Shown piece by piece: positions 4,971 to 59,154 of a DNA stretch of 64,000 nucleotides. This DNA comes from Myxococcota bacterium (lineage in GTDB: Bacteria; Myxococcota_A; UBA9042; PHBI01; JAWLBL01). The position numbers and the translations under genes are program-made. Location: positions 32,074 to 96,073 of the forward strand of contig JAWLBL010000008.1 of NCBI GenBank assembly GCA_041687695.1, written 5' to 3'. Each line of letters begins with the position of its first letter. The stretch's first letter is position 1. The notes beneath the pieces were generated by a model. The model was not told the DNA's origin. It did not search any database and saw nothing but the letters and a program-made list of their open reading frames with translations.

Positions 4971-6599
4971 ATGACCAACGCCACCTCGCGCATCTTCGCC
5001 GCCGCCGCGGCCGTGTTCCTCTTTGCTGCCTGCGAGCCGGGCGCCGGCTCGGGATCGGGCGGGCCCCTGTGCCAGCCGGGGGTCGCCGCGCCGTGCGCGT
5101 GCCCGGGCGGCGGCCAGGGTCAGGCGACCTGCAGCGCGCAGGGCCTGCCCGGCGCCTGCGAGGGTTGCGCGGCCGCCGACGTCGGGGGCGACACCCTGGC
5201 CGACGTCGCCGGGCCGGCCGATGTCGACGAGCCGGACACGATCGCGCCGCCCGACACCAAGGGCCCCGACGTCGTCGGGACCGACCTCGGCGCGCCGGAC
5301 GAGGGGCCCGACGCGGTGGCCTGCGTGCCCGACTGCGCCGGGCGCGAGTGCGGCGACGACGGCTGCGGCGGCGTGTGCGGCAGCTGCCCGGCGGCGGCGC
5401 CGATCTGCGACGACGGCCTGTGCGCCGTCAGCTGCCAGCCCGCGTGCGCCGGCAAGCAGTGCGGGCCCGACGGCTGCGGCGGCACCTGCGGCGCGTGCAC
5501 GGGCGAGGCCACCTGCGACGCCGCCGGGGTGTGCCAGCCGCCGGTGTGCTCGCCCCAGTGCGGCGGCAAGGAGTGCGGCGACGACGGGTGCGGCGGCGCG
5601 TGCGGCGCTTGCCCTGGCGGGTACGCCTGCGACGCGGCCTTCCAATGCGTGTCGACCTGCGCGCCCTCGTGCGTCGGCAAGCAGTGCGGCGACGACGGCT
5701 GCGGCGGCTCGTGCGGCGCGTGCTCGGGCGGTTCGTCCTGCGCGGCCGGCCAGTGCGTGACCGAAAACCCGCTGCCCGCGACCGTGAACCTCGAGATCCT
5801 GGGCGTGCTGGTCGGCCCGGCCAAGGCCTCGGGCGAGGCGTGGGACGGGGGCGGCTTCATCTCGCAGGCGACGCTGAACGCCGTCTTCGAGGCGATGATC
5901 GGCGACAGCCCGTACTCCGACGTCCTCTCGGTGATGACGTCGGCGGGCATCGCCGCCCTGGCCATGCCCGATCCGATGGGCGTGGCCGAGATCGACGTCG
6001 GCAACGGCTTCGAGACGCCCACCTCGCTCGCCGTCGCCGCCAACAACACCGAGAACACCTTCGCCCCCACCTGGCCGGCCCCGCCGCCGCCGGGCTGGAT
6101 CCAGGCGCCGGTCAGCCCGCAGCTGCGCGTCCGGATCACCCTGGAGGACGAGGACGTCGTCTTCCACGACGCCATCGGGACCGCCGTCCTGACCTACGAT
6201 CACATCCTGGCGACGTGGAACAAGGGCGGCGCCGCGCACATCGCGGTCGACGACCAGACCGACGGCCAGCTGCTGTTCGTCACGCTGGCGGTCAAGCCCG
6301 GCTGCACCCCGCAGTGCCAGGGCAAGGCCTGCGGCGACAACGGCTGCGGCGGCGAATGCAGCAAGTGCCCCAGCGGCACCGCCTGCAACGGCGTCCAGTG
6401 CGTCGCGGCTTCCTGCGGCGCCATCGGCTTCGAGGGCTGCTGCCAGTCGGGCGACCTGTACTGGTGCGAGGGCGGCCAGCTCATCGGCCTGGCCTGCCAC
6501 AAGAACCCCTCGTGCGGCTGGTCGGCCCAGGGCTACTATGACTGCGGCACCGACGGCGCCTCCGATCCGTCGAACACCTTCCCCAAGTCCTGCCCCTGA
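4971..6599 (+). CDS. Cysteine-rich repeat lipoprotein (myxobacterial Cys-rich repeat family-like)
   Basis: ATG at 4971 preceded by GGGAGAG; lipobox FLFAAC; five copies of module C-x-P-x-C-x-GK-x-CG-x-DGCGG-x-CG-x-C (four in tandem) and a C-terminal Cys-rich domain. Confidence 0.7.
   Translation: MTNATSRIFAAAAAVFLFAACEPGAGSGSGGPLCQPGVAAPCACPGGGQGQATCSAQGLPGACEGCAAADVGGDTLADVAGPADVDEPDTIAPPDTKGPDVVGTDLGAPDEGPDAVACVPDCAGRECGDDGCGGVCGSCPAAAPICDDGLCAVSCQPACAGKQCGPDGCGGTCGACTGEATCDAAGVCQPPVCSPQCGGKECGDDGCGGACGACPGGYACDAAFQCVSTCAPSCVGKQCGDDGCGGSCGACSGGSSCAAGQCVTENPLPATVNLEILGVLVGPAKASGEAWDGGGFISQATLNAVFEAMIGDSPYSDVLSVMTSAGIAALAMPDPMGVAEIDVGNGFETPTSLAVAANNTENTFAPTWPAPPPPGWIQAPVSPQLRVRITLEDEDVVFHDAIGTAVLTYDHILATWNKGGAAHIAVDDQTDGQLLFVTLAVKPGCTPQCQGKACGDNGCGGECSKCPSGTACNGVQCVAASCGAIGFEGCCQSGDLYWCEGGQLIGLACHKNPSCGWSAQGYYDCGTDGASDPSNTFPKSCP
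5322..5765 (+). repeat. Four tandem ~111-120 bp coding repeats (Cys-rich modules) inside CDS 4971..6599
   Basis: Repeating peptide modules CVPDCAGRECGDDGCGGVCGSCP / CQPACAGKQCGPDGCGGTCGACT / CSPQCGGKECGDDGCGGACGACP / CAPSCVGKQCGDDGCGGSCGACS read from the translation. Confidence 0.7.
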
Positions 6600-8180: not shown

Positions 8181-8950
8181 CAGCCCCCCGCGCCCGGCTC
8201 GGCCATCAGGATCTTCTCGGGGTCGCGCGGGTCCTCGAACCAGCGGCCGGGCTGCTTGGGCGGGGCGAGATCGAGGTGGTAGTGGTTGGCGTGGCCCGCG
8301 TCGTACTCGGGGTCGAGCACGTTGGTGAAGACCCGCTCGGCGCGTAGCCGCTCGGCCAGCCGCCTCAGGAACTCGCGGCGCTTGGCGTGCCAGGGCCTGG
8401 TGCTGTGCCAGTGCTTCTTCAGGTCCACGATGCCGTAGCCCTTGATGACGAAGCTCGCGACGTCGATGGCGTTGCCGAAGCTGTGCTGGCTCTGCGCCTC
8501 GGGCCGCAGCCGCAGCCGGCGGCAGTTGTTCGTGCCGTACTGGACGATGTACTTGATGGTCTTGCCCTCGCCGAAGACCCGCTCGCTCTCCTCCTGCGCG
8601 ATGGCCTCGAACTTCGCCATCGCCAGCGCCATGGCGCAGCTCATCTTCGGATACCCCGAGTAGCGGATGTCGCCGGGGCCGCGCTGGTACAGCAGCGCCT
8701 GCGGCGTGTAGCAGGCCATGTCCGGGTACTGCACCCCGCGCCAGCGGTAGCCCTTGAGCACTCGTGGCCGGCTCTGGGGCAAGAAGCGGTACTTCGTGAC
8801 CCCCGCCTCCTCGAGCCTGGCCTTGCAGTCCTCGACGAACAGCGCCTCCCAGGGCGCCGCGTCGAAGCCGCGGGGCAGGGGAGGCGGGGGCGCCGGCTCG
8901 GTGGGCGGCGCGGAGAGCAGCATCAGGGCGATGAGCGTCAGCGGGGGCAT
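8180..8950 (-). CDS. Secreted hypothetical protein (possible extensin-like C-terminal / M15-like fold)
   Basis: Signal peptide MPPLTLIALMLLSAPP; balanced amino-acid composition unlike GC-shadow ORFs; HANHYHLD motif near C-terminus; translationally coupled to the downstream SRPBCC gene. Confidence 0.6.
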   Translation of the reverse strand: MPPLTLIALMLLSAPPTEPAPPPPLPRGFDAAPWEALFVEDCKARLEEAGVTKYRFLPQSRPRVLKGYRWRGVQYPDMACYTPQALLYQRGPGDIRYSGYPKMSCAMALAMAKFEAIAQEESERVFGEGKTIKYIVQYGTNNCRRLRLRPEAQSQHSFGNAIDVASFVIKGYGIVDLKKHWHSTRPWHAKRREFLRRLAERLRAERVFTNVLDPEYDAGHANHYHLDLAPPKQPGRWFEDPRDPEKILMAEPGAGG

Positions 8951-14484: not shown

Positions 14485-14492
<8 letters not shown>

Positions 14493-15348
14493 TCGGGGAC
14501 TCCTCGGTCAGTCTCGCGATCTCCTTGCGGATGATCTCCTCCGCAAGCTCGGGAACCACCTTCCACGCGATGTCTTCCGCCTTCGGCCCGACCGCCTCGG
14601 CCACCGCCGCGCGCATCGCCGCCTCGGCCTTCGGCCCCATCCCGTAGGCCGCGTGCTCGACCACGTCGGGCATCGCCCGCGCGATGGCCGCGTCGATGGA
14701 CAGCTGCATCTGCGGCTCGGCCAGCCGCGCCAGGTGCTCGGTCAGGCGCTCCTCGATGAGCGCCCCGACCAGCGCCGGCAGCCGCGCCTCGACCGCCCGC
14801 GTCACCGCCGCCTCGACCGCCGCCCCGAGCAGCCCCGGCAGGCGCCGCTCCACCTCGGCCGCGACCATGCCCTCGACCTCGGCCGGCGCGACCGTCGCCG
14901 CTGCCGCGCTCGCGGGCGCCGCCTCCGCCGCCGCGTCACCCCACCCGGGCCCCTCGAGGTCGGCCTCGGGCAGCGGCTCGGGCGCCTGCTCGAGCAGGGC
15001 CCGCACCCGCTCGAGCAGGGCGTGCCGCTCGAAGGGCTTGGTCAGCACGTCCGTGACCCCGGCCTCGCTGATGCGCGCCAGATCGGGGCTCTCGTAGTCG
15101 GCCAGCGTCAGCAGCACCGGCGTGTCGCGCAGCAGCGGGTCGCGCCGCAGCGCCGCCGTCAGATCGTAGCCGTCCAGCCCCGGCAGCCTCGCGTCCACGA
15201 TGACCAGCCGCGGCCGGCGGGCGCGCGCGGTCGACAGCGCGTCACGACCGTTGGCGACGAACTCCAGCGCGACGTCGTCGGCTGCCAGCGTCAGCCGAAT
15301 CAGCGTCGTCAGCGTGCGGCTCGGCTCGGCGACGAGGATGCGCGACAC
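14485..15348 (-). CDS. Response regulator receiver protein with Ala-rich C-terminal extension
   Basis: GTG start (VSRILVAEPSR…) inside ORF 14485..16281; receiver motifs VIVDARLPGLDG…TKPF; 3' end overlaps valS start by 8 nt. Confidence 0.7.
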
Positions 15349-15407
15349 GGCGCGCGTCCCGGTGGCCTGCGTCCCGACGCCGCCCTGGCCATCGCGACCG
15401 CTCGGGC

Positions 15408-15749
15408 TCACGCTCCGCCGCTCTCCTCGCCCCAGGGGCGCACCTCGGAGGGGTCGGGCAGGAAGAAGGCCGCGACCTCCATCAGGATGACCCGCAGCTT
15501 GTCCGCCTCTCCGGCCGCCAGCACCTCGAGCGGCGTCTGGCCGTCCAGGTTGGGGATGGGGTTGGCCAGCCAGACCTCGGGCTCCTGGAAGATCAGCAGC
15601 GCCGTGCGCCACAGATCCTCGGGCACCTCGGGATCGCCCTCGGGCGCGCCCTGCCGGCCGCTCGTCCGCAGCTCGGGCGGCACGCTGGGCCAGTAGATCT
15701 CCATGAGCGACGCGTAGAACGCGTCCCACTGCGCGATGGTGGCTTGCAT
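15408..15749 (-). CDS. MbcA/ParS-type antitoxin C-terminal domain (DUF2384-like) protein, orphan
   Basis: 113 aa; C-terminal WLANPIPNLDGQTPLEVLAAGEADKLRVILMEVAAF matches the W..SPN..L...P.DL...GE...V...L pattern of Xre/MbcA/ParS toxin-binding domains; no RES-toxin gene adjacent. Confidence 0.55.
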   Translation of the reverse strand: MQATIAQWDAFYASLMEIYWPSVPPELRTSGRQGAPEGDPEVPEDLWRTALLIFQEPEVWLANPIPNLDGQTPLEVLAAGEADKLRVILMEVAAFFLPDPSEVRPWGEESGGA

Positions 15750-15849
15750 GCGCGCCTCTATACCACGCCGCTTCCGCGGCTGGGTATCTCGATTCGCGCC
15801 AGCCCCTCAGGGCCCCTCCGCCCGGCCCGACCCACGGCCACCCCTCCGA

Positions 15850-16165
15850 CCGACCCCCTCGGCCTCGGCCTCGGCCCCGGCTCCCGGCTCCCGGCCTCGG
15901 CTCCCGGCCCCGGCCTCGGCTCCCGGCCCCGGCCTCGGCTCCCGGCCCCGGCCTCGGCTCCCGGCCTCGGCCCCGGCCTCGGCCCCGGCTCCCGGCTCCC
16001 GGCTCCCGGCCCCGGCCCCGGCCTCGGCCCCGGCTCCCGGCTCCCGGCTCCCGGCCCCGGCCCCGGCTCCCGGCTCCCGGCTCCCGGCCCCGGCCTCGGC
16101 CCCGGCCCCGGCCTCGGCCTCGGCCCCGGCCCCCGACCCCGGCCTCGGCCCCCGACCCCGGCCCC
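15850..16165. repeat. GC-rich hexamer/heptamer microsatellite (CCTCGG / CCCCGG / CTCCCGG units, ~50 units)
   Basis: Read directly: cggcctcggcctcggccccggctcccggctcccggcctcgg… continuous for ~315 bp between the rnpB terminator and the MbcA-like gene; heptamer units break any reading frame. Confidence 0.85.
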
Positions 16166-16200
16166 AACGAAAAAAGCCCCCGACCCGCGAGGGTCGGAGG
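16166..16200 (-). terminator. Rho-independent terminator of rnpB
   Basis: Minus strand: GCCTCCGACCCTCGCGGGTCGGGGGCTTTTTTCGTT; 7-bp GC stem CCGACCC/GGGTCGG, loop TCGC, then T6. Confidence 0.6.
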
Positions 16201-16204
16201 CTTC

Positions 16205-16648
16205 GGACGCAGCATGAGCAGCCTGTAAGCCGAGTTCTGTCCCGACGGTCGGTCGCCCTCCCGCCGGCGATGGCCATTCATCTAGGCGACGGATTGCTCC
16301 GCCGCTCGAGCGATACTACCCGGGGGACGCGGACGGGCCGTCCGTGGCTTCCGCTCTCGCGGCCGCCAGCCCCACGATTGATCTTGCTCCAGGTGGGGTT
16401 TACCGACCCCCCAGGTCACCCTGGGCGGTCCGTGAGCTCTTACCTCACGCTTTCACCCTGACCTCCTGGGAGGCTCCTGTCGCCAGGATCCTCCGGGAGG
16501 CGGACTGCTCTCTGTGGCACTTTCCCTGGGGTCGCCCCCGCTGGCCGTTAGCCAGCACCATTGCCCTGTGGAGCTCGGACTTTCCTCCCGCCGCGGCGCC
16601 GTGAGACGCCCCGACCGGCGGCCATCCGGTCTACTCATGCTGCGAGCC
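16205..16648 (-). ncRNA. rnpB: RNase P RNA (bacterial type A)
   Basis: Minus strand has GGAGGAAAGTCCGAGCTCCACAGGGCA (P4/CR-I), P1 pairing GCAGCATGAG…CTCATGCTGC, and 3' region CTAGATGAATG…ACAGAACTCGGCTTA as in E. coli M1 RNA. Confidence 0.85.
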
Positions 16649-16652
16649 CGAC

Positions 16653-16683
16653 TTGATACGCACCCGGGAGGGCGCGGTCAATC
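16653..16683 (-). promoter_or_regulatory. Sigma70-like promoter for rnpB (-35 TTGACC, 17 nt spacer, -10 TATCAA)
   Basis: Minus strand: TTGACCgcgccctcccgggtgcgTATCAAgtcgggctcGCAGCATGAG places the TSS at the predicted mature 5' end. Confidence 0.4.
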
Positions 16684-16744
16684 GAAAGCCACGCGGACGC
16701 GCGGGCCGGCCGGGCAGGGGGCCGCCCGGTCGACCGCCCGCGGC

Positions 16745-17500
16745 TCAGCTCTGCAGGTGCGAGAGCTCGGCCACGTCGAAGTTCGCGTCCGGGTAGTCCT
16801 CCATGTAGAGGAAGCGCTGGCAGCTCGGGCAGCTCTGCAGGGTCTCGCCGCGCTGGACCAGGATGTAGGTCTGAGGCGGCAGCCGCATCTGGCAGCCGGT
16901 GCACTTGCCGTTCTCGCCCACCGACACGACGGCCTTGCCCTCGCGGCGGTCGAGCACCCGCTCGTAGCGGGCCAGCAGCGACCGGTTGATGCGGGCCCGC
17001 ACGCCGGCCTTCTGCGCGCCGACGTCGCCGATGGCGGCGTCGAGCTCGCGGAGCCGGTCCGCGCTCGCCTGCTCCTCGCGCTCGACCTCGCCCTCGAGGT
17101 TGGACAGCTTGTCCTCCTCGGAGGCGATGGAGCGCTTGTACTCCTCGATGGCCTCGGAGAGCCGCGTCAGCTCGGCCTCGTCCTCGGAGTACTTCTTGCG
17201 CAGCGTATCCAGCTCGCGCTGCATCGCCGCGTACTCCTTGGTCCGCGTCACCGTGGCGAGCTTCTGCTTGGCCCGGGCGAGGCGATCGCCGTCGGCCTGC
17301 AGGTCGATCTGCTTTTCCTGATGGAACCGCTGCGCCTCGACCAGCTTGTCCCGCTTGTCTTCGAGCTCCGAGCCCATCCGTCCGAGGATGGCCTTGAGGC
17401 GCTCGATGTTCGCGGTCATCTCGTCGCGTTGCAGCTTGTGCACGCGGATCGCGTCATCGATCCGCTGCAGCTCGATCAGTGCTTCGATGGTATCCTTCAC
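16745..17500 (-). CDS. C4-type zinc-ribbon domain protein (COG1579/DUF164-like), coiled-coil N-terminus
   Basis: GTG start with GGGGGG RBS (VKDTIEALIELQRIDD…); long coiled coil; C-terminal CTGCQMRLPPQ…CPSCQRFLY two-CxxC zinc ribbon. Confidence 0.75.
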   Translation of the reverse strand: MKDTIEALIELQRIDDAIRVHKLQRDEMTANIERLKAILGRMGSELEDKRDKLVEAQRFHQEKQIDLQADGDRLARAKQKLATVTRTKEYAAMQRELDTLRKKYSEDEAELTRLSEAIEEYKRSIASEEDKLSNLEGEVEREEQASADRLRELDAAIGDVGAQKAGVRARINRSLLARYERVLDRREGKAVVSVGENGKCTGCQMRLPPQTYILVQRGETLQSCPSCQRFLYMEDYPDANFDVAELSHLQS

Positions 17501-17647
17501 GACGCCCCCCAACACGCACGCGCACGCGTCTGCCCTTGAAAGCACAAGGGCGCCACCCTGAACGGATGGCGCCCGTAGCGCTCACTGCGGTAGTTGTCGG
17601 CTGCGTATCGGCCATTCGACAAACTGAGTCGCCTTGTTTCCAATCCG

Positions 17648-17720
17648 TGGGCCCACCTGGATTCGAACCAGGGACCAACCGGTTATGAGCCGGCGGCTCT
17701 CACCGCTGAGCTATAGGCCC
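17648..17720 (-). tRNA. tRNA with CAU anticodon; elongator-type with C4-G69/C5-G68, likely tRNA-Ile2 (lysidine, ileX-like) rather than tRNA-Met
   Basis: Minus strand GGGCCTATAGCTCAGCGGTGAGAGCCGCCGGCTCATAACCGGTTGGTCCCTGGTTCGAATCCAGGTGGGCCCA folds as cloverleaf (7-bp acceptor, TTCGAAT T-loop, anticodon loop CTCATAA); lies downstream of rpoD as ileX does in E. coli; CCA not encoded. Confidence 0.85.
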
Positions 17721-17924
17721 GTGCCTACAGGGTCGGGACCGTAACGCCATCGTTCGCGCCAAGTCAACAAGAGGTTGAGCCCCTCGCCGCCCTGCCACGA
17801 CGATGTCCGCCGCCGGCCTGTGCGGGCTGAAACCCACCCCCGGAGGCTTCATTCCCAGAGGCTCTCTGGGCGTCGGCGGCCCCGTCGGCCGGCTCCCGTC
17901 CGAGCCGCGATCTTCCCATCGAAG

Positions 17925-18440
17925 CGACGACGGCCAGAGCGCCTGGACGCTCCGGCCGCGCCGTGCCCGGGACCCCGGCGCCTCGGTGTCGATCCCGGAC
18001 CGACGACGGCCAGAGCGCGTGGACGCTCCGGCCGCGCCGTGCCCGGGCCCCCGGCGCCTCGCTGTCGATCCCGGAGCCGACGATGGCCAGAGCGCCTGGA
18101 CGCTCCGGCTGCCCCGTGCCCGGGGCCGCGGCGCCTGGGTGTCGATCCCGGAAACGACGACGGCCAGAGCGTCTGGACGCTCCGGCCGTGCCGTGCCCGG
18201 CGCCTCGGTGTCGATCCCGGAAACGACGACGGCCAGAGCGTCTGGACGCTCCGGCCGTGCCGTGCCCGGCGCCTCGGTGTCGATCCCGGAAACGACGACG
18301 GCCAGAGCGCGTGGACGCTCCGGCCGCGCCGTGCTCGGGCCCCGGTGCCTCGGTGTCGATCCCGGAAACGACGACGGCCAGAGCGCCTGGACGCTCCGGC
18401 CGTGCCGTGTCCGGGACTCCGGCGCCCGAGCGCCGAGCCC
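17925..18440. repeat. Tandem array of 7 near-identical 69-78 bp units, each with a strong GC hairpin (GGCCaGAGCGTCtgGACGCTCcGGCC), filling the rpoD-to-tRNA intergenic region
   Basis: Units begin at about 17925, 18001, 18079, 18157, 18226, 18295 and 18371: cgacgacggccagagcg(y)ctggacgctccggccg(y)gccgtgcccgg…cctcggtgtcgatcccggaaa. Variation is concentrated in the loop (tc/cc/cg) while stems are conserved. Array abuts the rpoD stop. Confidence 0.85.
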
Positions 18441-18444
18441 GATC

Positions 18445-20204
<1,760 letters not shown>

Positions 20205-20217
<13 letters not shown>

Positions 20218-22082
20218 CGCGTCCCTCGGGTGCCCTTCAGCGTGTTGAGCTGTTCCTGAATCTTCGCTTCTTCGACCAGGATCTGGATCAGATCCGTCTC
20301 GCGACCGGCGCGCGACAGGTCGCGCCGGCGCTGACTGAGCTCATGTTGTTGTCGTTTCAGCGCTTCGATCCGGAGTGCGGTCTCCAGCCCATCGAGATCT
20401 CGCCGCCAGTCTTGAGGCGGTGGTTGGGTCGTCATGGCCTGGAGGAGCGATGCGCGTAGCTCGACGTCTTCGAGCGCAGCTATGTAGTCATTGACGTTCA
20501 GCGTCTCTTCCGTCTCTCTGGACACCGCCAGAGCGTCGGCGGCTCTCTTAATGCGTTCGCTGGTCAACAGATTTCCGATTTCGTGTCCGAGGTAGACGAG
20601 CGAGGCGTCTGGGGCCAGCGTCAGCAGCACGAGGAGCTTGAGCTCGAGCACCGGCGGCGGGACCTTCGGGGCCGCTGGCGCGGACGCGCGGGGGGGCGGC
20701 GCGTCGGACCGGACTGGGGCGCCGCCCAGACGGGCGAGCGCGTCGCGCACGAACCGGGCGGTCTCAGCCTCCGACAACCCGAGGGCTTCGGCGAGGTGTC
20801 GGCCATAAAGCGACCGCTCGCGTCGGTCCTCGACCCGCCCCAGCACCGGCGCGAGCGCGTCGATGGCACGGACCTTGCCCTGCTGGCTGTCGCGCGCTCG
20901 CGTCTCCGCGGTCACCGCGTCGACCAGGAACTCCCAGCCGGGCAGGGCGCGGGCGATCAAGGCGTCGAGCGCCTCCTTGCCCTGGGCCCGGACGAAGGTG
21001 TCCGGGTCCTCGCCGTCCGGGAGCTGCACCACCGCGACCTGCAGCCCCTCGGCGAGGGCCATCGGGATCGCCTTGATCGTGGCCGCCTGGCCCGCCCGGT
21101 CGCCGTCGTACAGCAGGACGACCTGCGGCACGAAGCGCCTGAGCAGCCGGCACTGCGGCTCGGTGAGCGCGGTGCCCAGCGGCGCCACGACGGCCTCGAC
21201 GCCCTCTTGCGAAAGGCGCATCACGTCCACGTTGCCCTCGACGAGGACCGCGTGGCCGGCGACGCGCATCGCCTTTCGCGCCTCGTGCAAGCCGAAGAGC
21301 ATGGCGCCCTTGGTGTACACGGGGGTCTCGGGCGAGTTGACGTACTTGGCGACGTCCTTCTCGGTCGACAGCGTGCGCCCGGAGTAGGCGACGATGTCCC
21401 CCGAGAGGGTGCGGATCGGGAACATGAGCCGGTTGCGGAACCGGTCGTAGTGCCCGCCGCCGGACTCTCCACCACGCTGGCGCGGGACGCAGAAGCCCAG
21501 CGTCTCGGCGAGACGAAGATCTTGACTCTGGCTGACAAAGAACGTGCTGAGGCCGTCCCAGCGGTCCGGCGCGAAGCCGAGCCCGAAGCGATCGACGGTC
21601 GGGAGCGTCAGGCCGCGCTCGCGGAGGTAGGCGCGGCAGGGCTGCCCTTCGGCGGCCCCGAGCGCGTCCACGAAGAAGCGCTGCGCGAGGCGCGCCATGG
21701 CGTAGCACGCGTCCTTGAACCCGCGCGGCGCCGAGGCGCCGTCGCCGCCCCGACCGCCCGCCCGACGGCGGCCGTCGGCGGGCTCCTCGGGGATGTCGAT
21801 CCCCGCGCGCCCGGCGAGGTGGCGCACCGCTTCGACGAAGCTGTAGCCGTTGATCTCGCGGAGGAACGAGATCACGTCCCCGCCGGTCTGGCACCCAAAA
21901 CAGTAAAAGAACTGACGGTCCTCGTGGACCGTGAAGGACGGGCTCTTCTCGGCGTGGAAGGGACACAGGCCCTTCCACGACGTCCCGGCCTTCTTCAGCG
22001 AGACGTAGTCGCCGATGACCGCCACGATGTTGTTGCGGTCACGGACCTCTTGCAGGAGCGCGTCATCGAACCGCCCGGACAC
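20205..22082 (-). CDS. dnaG: DNA primase
   Basis: Zinc-binding [13 protein letters not shown]…[16 protein letters not shown]; TOPRIM region; 3' end overlaps rpoD start (classic dnaG-rpoD arrangement). Confidence 0.95.
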
Positions 22083-55254: not shown

Positions 55255-55560
55255 GTGGCCACGGCCTACGGCCTCGGCGACGGCCACGGCCTACGGCCTC
55301 GGCCACGGCCTACGGCCTCGGCCACGGCCTACGGCCTCGGCGACGGCCACGGCCTACGGCCTCGGCGACGGCCTCGGCGACGGCCACGGCCTACGGCCTC
55401 GGCGACGGCCTCGGCGACGGCCACGGCCTACGGCCTCGGCCACGGCCTACGGCCTCGGCGACGGCCTACGGCCTCGGCGACGGCCACGGCCTACGGCCTC
55501 GGCGACGGCCACGGCCTACGGCCTCGGCCACGGTCTCGGCGACGGCCACGGTAGCCGGCC
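55255..55560. repeat. GC-rich hexamer/heptamer microsatellite (CCACGG / CCTACGG / CCTCGG / CGACGG units), related to the array at 15850..16165
   Basis: Read directly: ggccacggcctacggcctcggcgacggccacggcctacggcctcggcc… for ~300 bp between tetR (start 54786) and the 3' end of the FAAL gene; mixed 6/7-nt units preclude coding. Confidence 0.85.
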
Positions 55561-57894: not shown

Positions 57895-59154
57895 ATGCCC
57901 AGAGCTCTTCAGTCCCTCCTGGCCGCGGCCGTCGTCGCGGCGACCCCCGCCGTCGCGTCCGCGCAGTCGGCCGTCACCGCCCGCTCCGCCGACCTCGGCG
58001 TCGACATGGGCGGCCTGTTCTTCCTCGGCGGCGCCGAAGGCCTCAGCGACACGTTCGCCTACCGGATCGCGGGCGCCTACAACTTCACGCGCCACATCGC
58101 CGCCCACCTGGGCGTCGACTTCTCACCGCGCGAGGTCAACCAGGTCTCGGTGACCCACGTGCACCTCGCGGCCCTGTACCGCCCGCTCTCGCACGCCTGG
58201 TTCGTCCCGTTCGTCGGCGCCGGCCCCAGCCTCGCCGTGACCACGCCCAAGGACGGCGACGCCGACGTCGACCCGGCGGTCAGCGCGATGGCCGGCGTCG
58301 ACCTGTACCCCTGGGAGCGCGTCGGCTTCCGCGCCTCCACGCGCTACATGGCGCGCTTCGGCACCGACGACGACGAGACGACCTCGCACGACCTCATCGC
58401 CTCGCTGGGCATGTTCGTCACCTTCGGCGACCAGGCCCCGACCGGGCCCATCCTGCTCGACACCGACGGCGACGGCTTCCTCGATCCCGACGACCTGTGC
58501 GTCAACGTCCCGGGCCACGCCAGCGCCCAGGGCTGCCCCGACATCGACGGCGACACCATCGTCGACGCGGACGACCGCTGCCCGAACGACCCCGGCACCA
58601 AGGCCCTCGCCGGCTGCCCCGACAAGGACGGCGACGACATCGCGGATCTGGACGACCGCTGCCCCGACGTCCCCGGCACGCCGGCCCACAAGGGCTGCCC
58701 CGACCTCGACGGCGACGACATCGCCGATCTGGACGACCGCTGCCCCAAGATCCCGGGTGACAAGCGCTTCGGCGGCTGCCCGCCGCCGCCGCCCGAGGAG
58801 GTCGTCAAGAAGTACTCGGGCGCCATCGCCGGCATCACCTTCAAGTACGACTCGGCCGAGATCGAGCCCAGCTCCTTCCCGGTGCTCGACGAGGCGGCGG
58901 CCGTGCTGGCCGAGTACGCGCACCTGGTCGTGCTCATCGAGGGCCACACCTCGGCCGAGGGCAGCGCCCAGTACAACCAGGAGCTGTCGCAGCGCCGCGC
59001 CGAGTCGGTCCGCCAGTACCTGGTGGACAAGGGCATCGCGGCCGAGCGCCTGCAGGCCAAGGGCTTCGGCAAGGACAACCCGGTGGCGACCAACGACACC
59101 GAGGAAGGCCGCGCCCAGAACCGCCGCATCGAGTTCAAGATCCTCGTCCAGTAG
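57895..59154 (+). CDS. OmpA-family outer-membrane protein with thrombospondin type-3 (TSP3) Ca-binding repeats
   Basis: Internal ATG of ORF 57661..59154; signal peptide …AVASAQSA; N-terminal beta-barrel region; repeats DTDGDGFLDPDDLC / DIDGDTIVDADDRCPNDPG / DKDGDDIADLDDRCPDVPG / DLDGDDIADLDDRCPKIPG; C-terminal OmpA domain (…NQELSQRRAESV…NRRIEF). Confidence 0.85.
   Translation: MPRALQSLLAAAVVAATPAVASAQSAVTARSADLGVDMGGLFFLGGAEGLSDTFAYRIAGAYNFTRHIAAHLGVDFSPREVNQVSVTHVHLAALYRPLSHAWFVPFVGAGPSLAVTTPKDGDADVDPAVSAMAGVDLYPWERVGFRASTRYMARFGTDDDETTSHDLIASLGMFVTFGDQAPTGPILLDTDGDGFLDPDDLCVNVPGHASAQGCPDIDGDTIVDADDRCPNDPGTKALAGCPDKDGDDIADLDDRCPDVPGTPAHKGCPDLDGDDIADLDDRCPKIPGDKRFGGCPPPPPEEVVKKYSGAIAGITFKYDSAEIEPSSFPVLDEAAAVLAEYAHLVVLIEGHTSAEGSAQYNQELSQRRAESVRQYLVDKGIAAERLQAKGFGKDNPVATNDTEEGRAQNRRIEFKILVQ

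Follow-up and report, generated by a model that had tools for sequence, protein, structure and literature searches.

Hairpin-containing intergenic repeats arranged head to tail at a single locus have been described in Wolbachia (VNTR-105 and VNTR-141; PMC3287509), with a period of approximately 70-140 bp, one or two palindromic hairpins per period and internal deletions in some of the periods. Within a strain, the periods of these VNTRs are homogenized, and the differences between close strains, including the internal-deletion variants, have been attributed to slippage and concerted evolution. The array described here, which lies downstream of rpoD in a 64,000-nucleotide stretch of a Myxococcota contig (hereafter, the window), shares these features and also has traits in common with other described systems. 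As in intrinsic terminators, a G+C-rich stem-loop with a 4-nt loop and a U-containing tail stands on the sense strand directly after a stop codon, and the SPRITE of Streptococcus pneumoniae illustrates that terminator-like modules can be repeated elements. The REP and BIME sequences of enterobacteria and pseudomonads likewise are imperfect, G+C-rich palindromes that lie outside genes, at their 3' ends, and can stabilize the upstream mRNA; at mRNA 3' ends, REP sequences form a barrier to 3' exonucleases (PMC3184786). The MIRU-VNTRs of Mycobacterium also consist of 40-100-bp units repeated in tandem between the genes of a high-G+C genome; they are co-oriented and transcribed with the flanking operon and, like the present array, are absent from the homologous site in related species.

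The array and its gene neighborhood

Seven direct, hairpin-forming units fill positions 17920-18444 of the window head to tail on the minus strand, after rpoD. Tandem Repeats Finder (TRF) detected the array at 17921-18426 with a period of 76, 6.8 copies, 88% matches and a score of 724, the one long-period array of this kind in the window, which has a G+C content of 72%. A repeat search returned seven copies with successive spacings of 76, 77, 77, 69, 69 and 76 nt. When the unit borders were set by anchoring on the palindrome, the units on the minus strand were U1 (18444-18364, 81 nt), U2 (18363-18288, 76 nt), U3 (18287-18219, 69 nt), U4 (18218-18150, 69 nt), U5 (18149-18073, 77 nt), U6 (18072-17997, 76 nt) and U7 (17996-17920, 77 nt). 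Six distinct sequences were found among these seven, two adjacent units being identical, and a covariance model built from the units scored each of the seven at 83-102 bits. Taken together, TRF, the repeat search, the unit extraction and the covariance model confirmed the existence and the coordinates of the array given in the preliminary description. In addition, the repeat search and the motif positions revealed a partial eighth copy on the minus strand (17893-17919), in which the flank GATGGGAAGATCGCGGCTCGG... resembles the start of U1 (GATCGGGCTCGG); the repeat search listed 17893-17997 as a 70% copy of a 105-nt reference. Such a partial copy at the distal edge is expected at the border of a local tandem duplication.

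Upstream of the array on the minus strand are dnaG (20205-22082, identified by Pfam) and rpoD (18445-20217), which encodes a primary sigma-70 factor of 590 aa with the Pfam Sigma70 regions 1.1, 1.2, 2, 3 and 4. The rpoD translation ends in ...KLKSFVDN*, the stop codon TGA occupies 18447-18445, and the first base of U1 (18444) directly follows it. The last base of U7 (17920) lies 200 nt before a tRNA with the anticodon CAU (17647-17720, minus strand; Rfam tRNA, 68 bits), so that the extent initially described, from the rpoD stop to about 200 nt before the tRNA, was borne out to the base at its upstream end. ARAGORN called this tRNA Met; it is probably a tRNA-Ile2 of the lysidine type, judging from its best E. 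coli matches (80-82%, full-length), which are annotated as tRNA-Ile. The next genes, again on the minus strand, encode a Zn_ribbon_9/CT398-like coiled-coil protein (16745-17545; Pfam and exact protein look-up, with the start placed at 17500 by the gene caller) and the RNase P RNA of bacterial class A (rnpB, 16211-16637; Rfam RF00010, 243 bits). All of the genes in the block are thus on one strand, as the preliminary description had stated, with the correction that this strand, which is also the sense strand of the array, is the minus one.

A promoter-like element was recognized from the sequence upstream of the tRNA (17738-17767, minus strand), consisting of TTGACT (17767-17762), 18 nt and TACGGT (17743-17738). 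The TTGAC box lies 47 nt upstream of the tRNA 5' end and is found at the same distance in the relatives L023, L024, L026, L054, L055 and L056; it was not picked up by a strict consensus scan. Since the box is conserved in the window and in the relatives, the tRNA very probably has its own promoter, and the array is therefore to be regarded as the 3' end of rpoD. The earlier view of the array as a spacer co-transcribed with the tRNA is accordingly not a necessary one.

The window also contains other G+C-rich tandem arrays that are apparently non-coding, a hexamer array at 15860-16165 (306 nt long, versus about 400 nt in the sister assembly described below) and another at 55257-55551.

All six reading frames are open across the rpoD array. 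By our own estimate, this is to be expected for a repeated 76-nt unit that, with 11% A and 11% T, happens to be without six trinucleotides (P ~0.2). The sense strand of the array contains no ATG, GTG or TTG, a unit length of 76/77 nt is not divisible by 3 and shifts the frame between units, and the indels between strains (8, 1 and 8 nt) do not keep the frame. These properties exclude a coding repeat or a read-through extension of RpoD, in agreement with the initial claim that the array does not serve coding.

Two further assignments were rejected. A CRISPR array does not apply, since the repeat spans the entire 69-77-nt period, with a mean column identity of 87%, and there are no unique spacers. 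The 76-nt period next to a tRNA could recall tRNA-derived units; ARAGORN found only the real tRNA, and the Rfam tRNA model, at E values of up to 10, matched only 17648-17720.

Unit structure, folding and termination signals

The sense-strand consensus of the unit is GGGAUCGACACCGAGGCGCC(GGGGNCC)CGGGCACGGCGCGGCCGGAGCGUCCAGGCGCUCUGGCCGUCGUCGUUUCC, and the two 69-nt units are without 7-8 nt (GGGGNCC) located between two CCGGG repeats. A 26-nt palindrome, GGCCAGAGCGNNTGGACGCTCCGGCC, occurs seven times in the window at 0-1 mismatch, all within the array, and its pattern had no match in 100 shuffles (0 expected versus 7 found). Pattern search, RNAalifold and single-unit folds placed the core hairpin of U1 at 18376..18401 and those of the other six units at 18300-18325, 18231-18256, 18162-18187, 18085-18110, 18008-18033 and 17932-17957, all on the minus strand. 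On the sense strand, the hairpin reads GGCCGGAGCGU-CCAG/CCAC-GCGCUCUGGCC and is followed by the tail UCGUCGUUUCC; the first hairpin begins 40 nt past the rpoD stop. The preliminary description had assigned a palindrome with a 'tg' center to each unit. A palindrome is indeed present in all of them, but the extended form ...GAGCGTC-tg-GACGCTC... is carried only by the two 69-nt units, and the others have a 10+10 stem with a 6-nt center (plus strand).

RNAalifold analysis of 11 distinct units from two strains predicted a 13-bp stem (columns 42-54/59-71) with a CCAG or CCAC tetraloop, and in the single-unit folds the stem was often lengthened to 17-18 bp via the flanking ACGGC/GUCGU. The single units folded at -40 to -45.5 kcal/mol in the sense orientation (z -2.3 to -3.6) and at -35 to -41 kcal/mol as the reverse complement (z -0.2 to -2.4). 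The 740-nt region covering the whole rpoD-tRNA spacer folded at -498 kcal/mol on the sense strand (z -9.6) and at -417 kcal/mol on the opposite strand (z -3.5). Folding of the single units and of the whole array, which had been proposed as a check, thus predicted strong hairpins that form far better on the sense strand. This bias arises because three imperfect stem positions are G·U on the rpoD-sense strand and A·C on the other strand. In a partition-function fold of the whole array, almost every base was paired, including the GGGA at the unit starts (unpaired probability ~0), and only the CCAG/CCAC tetraloops and a GACA segment were open; long inter-unit duplexes were also predicted.

All of the units have a stem of at least 5 bp and a loop of 3-8 nt on the sense strand after the stop codon, as intrinsic terminators do. 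We then applied a terminator scan, in which the U-tract requires at least 5 T in the 8 nt directly 3' of the stem. The scan flagged the terminators of the tRNA (17548-17574, minus strand; GGGCGCCAUCCGUUCAGGGUGGCGCCC then UUGUGCUUUC) and of rnpB (16204-16173, minus strand; textbook type) and none of the seven units, and it detected no canonical terminator between rpoD and the tRNA in the window. The unit tail (UCGUCGUU, TCGTCGTT) has 4 T in 8, one under the threshold, and the tRNA terminator tail UUGUGCUU has 5 T in its first eight. The textbook terminators of the tRNA and rnpB indicate that the organism uses hairpin plus U-tract signals. With 13-18 bp and an energy near -30 kcal/mol, the predicted stems of the array units exceed typical terminator hairpins in length and strength, and some of the U-containing unit tail is itself predicted to pair.

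Variation between strains and distribution

An identical RpoD protein is encoded in a second NCBI MAG, GCA_041690335.1 (contig JAWLHM010000004.1; L022), which is 99.7% identical to the window over 6145 nt upstream and 97.4% identical downstream. The L022 array is at the same place and is broken by 100 N, the gap being flanked by a 99-nt identical overlap. When the two sides were merged, the spacer was 709 nt long and collinear with the 724 nt of the window, with seven units in the same order. The two assemblies are both MAGs, in which short-read assembly leaves the phasing of variants among the units uncertain. Between the two strains, the array differs by 13 substitutions and the three indels mentioned above in 525 nt (2.5%), versus 1 substitution in the 199 nt next to it and 19 over the 6145 nt upstream (0.3-0.5%); the divergence of the array is thus about 8 times that of the flanks, hairpin included. 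Of the 13 substitutions, 6 are in the hairpin, roughly in proportion to the fraction of the unit that it occupies, and purifying selection on the hairpin is therefore not detectable. The units that carry or lack the 7-8-nt indel (GGGGNCC) are not the same in the two strains, and several of the between-strain 'substitutions' turn a unit into the state of its neighbor. Close strains of a minisatellite (VNTR) differ in unit number or internal structure; here the internal structure differs and the unit number is the same.

We also compared the units within the window. Variable columns amounted to 20 of 37 in the 5' part, 4 of 10 in the tail, 4 of 26 in the stem (1 of 20 in its core) and 1 of 4 in the loop. 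The preliminary description had located the differences in the loop, with the stems kept; this holds only inside the palindrome, and most of the unit-to-unit differences lie outside the hairpin. Among the 11 distinct units from the two strains, none of the 23 predicted pairs showed a compensatory double change. The stem variation consisted of a few one-sided Watson-Crick/wobble changes, together with two unit types that have two broken pairs each. The lack of compensatory pairs is in itself uninformative, because the units are recent copies of one another. With no compensatory pair and a divergence that does not spare the hairpin, the 'signature of selection on RNA structure' originally read from the units was not sustained. 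Judged from these comparisons, the pattern is that of minisatellite slippage and gene conversion, unlike that of a constrained structured RNA, and both the number of copies and the detailed unit sequence look neutral, with gene conversion and slippage keeping the units alike.

Apart from that of L022, the closest RpoD proteins, encoded in Myxococcota/'Deltaproteobacteria' MAGs, share only 75-78% identity with the one in the window. Seven relatives (L023, L024, L026 and L054-L057) keep the order SCP2 gene, dnaG, rpoD, tRNA(CAU) and Zn-ribbon gene, with a rpoD-to-Zn-ribbon spacer of 256-614 nt versus 900 nt here. No comparable array was found in any of their seven rpoD-tRNA loci, and the comparison of this spacer in related genomes, another of the proposed checks, thus gave no positional conservation of the array beyond the species. 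In L023, L026, L055 and L057, a single G+C hairpin plus T-run stands right after the rpoD stop. The unit and L023 share CGGGATCGA...CCGAGCACGGC, and the comparison of the unit with the rpoD 3' regions of the relatives gave p ~0.002-0.006, uncorrected over 21 comparisons, and a covariance-model E of 2, a marginal hint that the unit may have descended from the rpoD 3' region seen in the relatives.

No further copy of the unit was found in the 64-kb window using the pattern with up to 3 mismatches, blastn-short or the covariance model, and outside the array the covariance model had no significant hit either in the window or in the loci of the relatives. A scan with the stem pattern returned 21 matching stretches in 185,579 species genomes, 27 in metagenome contigs and 1 in viral contigs, all of them singletons. 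In full-unit blast searches against the matched genome and metagenome loci, the similarity was limited to the 26-40-nt palindrome that the pattern selects, indicating that the matches outside the locus are singleton chance palindromes. Since no other copy was found in the window or in the scanned collections, the unit is not a generic dispersed REP, a possibility that the preliminary description had raised. As far as seen in these searches, the array is limited to one locus of one species.

Explanations of the array and comparison with known systems

With moderate confidence, we favor the explanation that the rpoD 3' end contains a species-specific hairpin minisatellite whose units would act as serial weak terminators and 3'-end protectors. 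A stretch of ~76 bp in the 3' untranslated region of rpoD would have been duplicated locally and in tandem, through slippage or unequal recombination, and the resulting array would be transcribed from the rpoD strand as the tail of a dnaG-rpoD mRNA. The predicted fold of each unit is a G+C-rich hairpin of 13-18 bp and very high stability, with UCGUCGUUUCC after it, and the row of hairpins would most likely do the job of the single hairpin plus U-run found after rpoD in relatives. RNA polymerase would be stopped by a series of individually weak intrinsic terminators, and the hairpins would block 3'-exonucleases; the rpoD 3' end would thereby be defined and stabilized ahead of the tRNA(CAU) promoter. 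The number of copies probably arose neutrally, as a side effect of slippage. Among the roles suggested in the preliminary description, a terminator or RNA-stability element thus appears to be the most reasonable one, with the reservation that the units miss the canonical terminator consensus.

A purely neutral minisatellite (VNTR), that is, a product of slippage that has no function itself, with the rpoD transcripts ended by Rho or other signals, is a possible but somewhat unlikely alternative. The hairpin would then be whatever was duplicated and would promote further slippage, as in the explanation given for the Wolbachia VNTRs (PMC3287509). The absence of the array from all seven relatives, the ~8-fold faster divergence than the flanks with the hairpin not spared, the lack of compensatory covariation and the other variable G+C-rich tandem arrays in the same window (15860-16165 and 55257-55551) are all consistent with neutrality. 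However, the array is exactly where relatives have the rpoD terminator, with no other terminator present, and transcription of the array, if it occurs, could therefore hardly leave the rpoD 3' end unaffected. In addition, within one genome the units vary least in the hairpin (core stem 1 of 20 columns versus 20 of 37 in the 5' part), and the order of the seven units is kept in the two strains.

It seems improbable that the seven hairpins constitute a selected, graded multi-terminator or RNA-stability device that sets the rpoD output, or a source of 3'UTR-derived small RNAs. As a device, the array would tune, through copy number or internal variants, the half-life of the rpoD mRNA and the read-through into tRNA-Ile2(CAU), the Zn-ribbon gene and rnpB. 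As a small-RNA source, it would be cut, for example by RNase III, on the predicted long inter-unit duplexes.

We regard as decidedly improbable a regulatory RNA that tunes sigma-70 or other targets, whether in the form of tandem sRNA genes, 3'UTR-derived sRNAs or a sponge for an RNA-binding protein, even though every unit of the array has a stable hairpin with a short U-containing tail on the transcribed strand, and the array lies on the mRNA of a global regulator. In tandem sRNA genes of the NsiR1 type, each repeat has its own promoter and terminator. Our scan found no promoter-like hexamer pairs in 16000-20500, a weak test since it also misses the likely tRNA promoter; within the units there were no promoter-like hexamers, and the TCGACA of each unit is without a -10 partner. 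Sponges of the CsrB/RsmZ type expose repeated GGA motifs in hairpin loops or single-stranded linkers. Here, the GGA motifs are predicted to be paired, with an unpaired probability of ~0 for GGGA, which argues against a CsrA-type sponge; nearly all bases of the array are paired, and only the CCAG/CCAC tetraloop recurs as an exposed loop. Furthermore, the array belongs to no known RNA family in Rfam, which gave only sub-threshold miRNA-precursor hairpin matches that we consider noise, and it is absent from the relatives.

An array that works at the DNA level is very unlikely. It would consist of palindromic sites for a dimeric nucleoid, partition or regulatory protein, or of a gyrase/IHF-type target like the BIMEs of E. 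coli. Each unit does contain a near-palindrome of 10+10 bp (12+12 bp in two units), and the REP clusters of E. coli bind IHF, Pol I and gyrase (PMC3184786). The half-sites are, however, consistently asymmetric (A versus G at position 5), giving G·U on one RNA strand, and the folding is strongly strand-biased. Moreover, the spacing of 69 or 76-77 bp does not keep one constant helical phase, the array is at a single locus with no equivalent in the relatives, and no candidate binding protein was identified.

An assembly artefact, namely an over-expanded or chimeric repeat from short-read metagenome assembly, is highly unlikely. Both sources are MAG contigs, the sister assembly has the N gap with its duplicated flank within the array, and two of the window units are identical, so that sequence alone cannot fix their number. 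However, the six distinct unit sequences of the window require at least six units, and the merged sister array is collinear, with seven units, the same order and unit-specific markers; the two assemblies differ by SNPs in the flanks and therefore share no consensus. The distinct units and the collinear sister array together rule out a gross assembly artefact, which the preliminary description had named as a concern.

Finally, a cluster of REP/REPIN-type or MITE-type mobile palindromes inserted after rpoD is extremely unlikely: G+C-rich extragenic palindromes do occur at gene 3' ends and REP clusters (BIMEs) exist, but the unit has no other copy in the 64 kb and only singleton chance palindromes as matches in the 185,579 species genomes and the metagenome and viral contigs, the copies are all direct and head to tail with a whole-unit period instead of alternating in orientation, the partial edge copy is what local duplication predicts, and no terminal inverted repeats or target-site duplications were seen.

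If the favored explanation of serial weak terminators is true, the array would be a natural case in which termination strength comes from copy number, not from one strong signal, and this on the transcript that encodes the primary sigma factor, with a tRNA and the RNase P RNA directly downstream. As a species-specific and fast-evolving marker, the array could separate strains of this uncultured Myxococcota lineage, and it illustrates how such repeats break or blur MAG assemblies.

The locus can now be set against the known systems. It differs from the Wolbachia VNTRs in that its sequence and host phylum are unrelated to theirs, the rpoD unit abuts the stop codon and looks terminator-like, and the copy number is the same (seven) in the two available strains, which differ only in internal indels. 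The rpoD unit departs from intrinsic terminators by its tail, with only 4 U in the first 8 nt, and by its unusually long stem; terminators and SPRITE occur as single or dispersed copies, whereas the rpoD array consists of seven tandem copies at one locus. REPs are dispersed in hundreds of copies and alternate in orientation within BIMEs; in contrast, the rpoD array occupies one locus, all seven of its copies are direct and the whole 69-77-nt unit is repeated. Neither many dispersed copies nor an alternating orientation with conserved linkers was found in the 64-kb window and the public collections. The array matches the MIRU-VNTRs in unit size and orientation (69-81 nt, on the same strand as rpoD and the tRNA). 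However, MIRUs are found at ~40-50 loci and contain small ORFs that overlap the stop/start of the flanking genes, unlike the rpoD array, which is at one known locus, has no start codons on its sense strand and is followed by a tRNA gene. On present evidence, the array is a lineage-specific curiosity and not a new mechanism; rather than being a REP, BIME, MIRU or CRISPR, it falls within known kinds, the intergenic hairpin VNTRs of bacteria and the terminator-like repeats.

Hexanucleotide microsatellite beside rnpB

Next to rnpB, a hexanucleotide microsatellite of ~306 nt occupies window positions 15860-16165 in minus-strand sense and consists of ~50 copies of the units (GGCCGG/GGCCGA/GGAGCC)n, beginning a few bases downstream of the rnpB terminator (16204-16173). 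Its equivalent in L022, the sister assembly of the same species, spans ~400-416 nt (8239-8654), and the length of the microsatellite therefore varies from strain to strain. Gene calling on L022 left it uncalled, yet a long ORF (14485-16281) crosses the microsatellite.

Other tandem repeats in the window

Tandem repeats seem to arise readily between the genes of the source genome. A G+C-rich tandem array at 55257-55551 (consensus GGCCACGGCCTACGGCCTCGGCGAC), with periods of 19, 25 and 137 and ~12-16 copies, is located in apparently non-coding DNA, crossed by low-complexity ORFs only. In addition, Tandem Repeats Finder (TRF) detected two long-period repeats, at 5347-5731 (111 nt, 3.5 copies) and 58458-58781 (81 nt, 3.1-3.6 copies), and these may be internal to protein-coding genes, because both periods are multiples of three.

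Gene order and identity of the tRNA(CAU)

The order of the SCP2 gene, dnaG, rpoD, tRNA(CAU) and the Zn_ribbon_9/CT398-like gene was kept in all seven relatives examined, including the loci L023, L026 and L054-L057. In the window, rnpB (16211-16637) directly follows the Zn_ribbon_9/CT398-like gene (16745-17545). The contig of a further relative, L025 (ENA ERZ6864376, contig c_000005306356), stops 14 nt past the rpoD stop codon.

ARAGORN called the tRNA(CAU), encoded on the minus strand at 17647-17720, as tRNA-Met. Its top E. coli matches, which cover the full length at 80-82% identity, are annotated as tRNA-Ile, and judging from this similarity the gene probably encodes a lysidine-type tRNA-Ile2. 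In E. coli, ileX is located near rpoD as well, and the linkage between rpoD and tRNA-Ile2 may therefore be of ancient origin.
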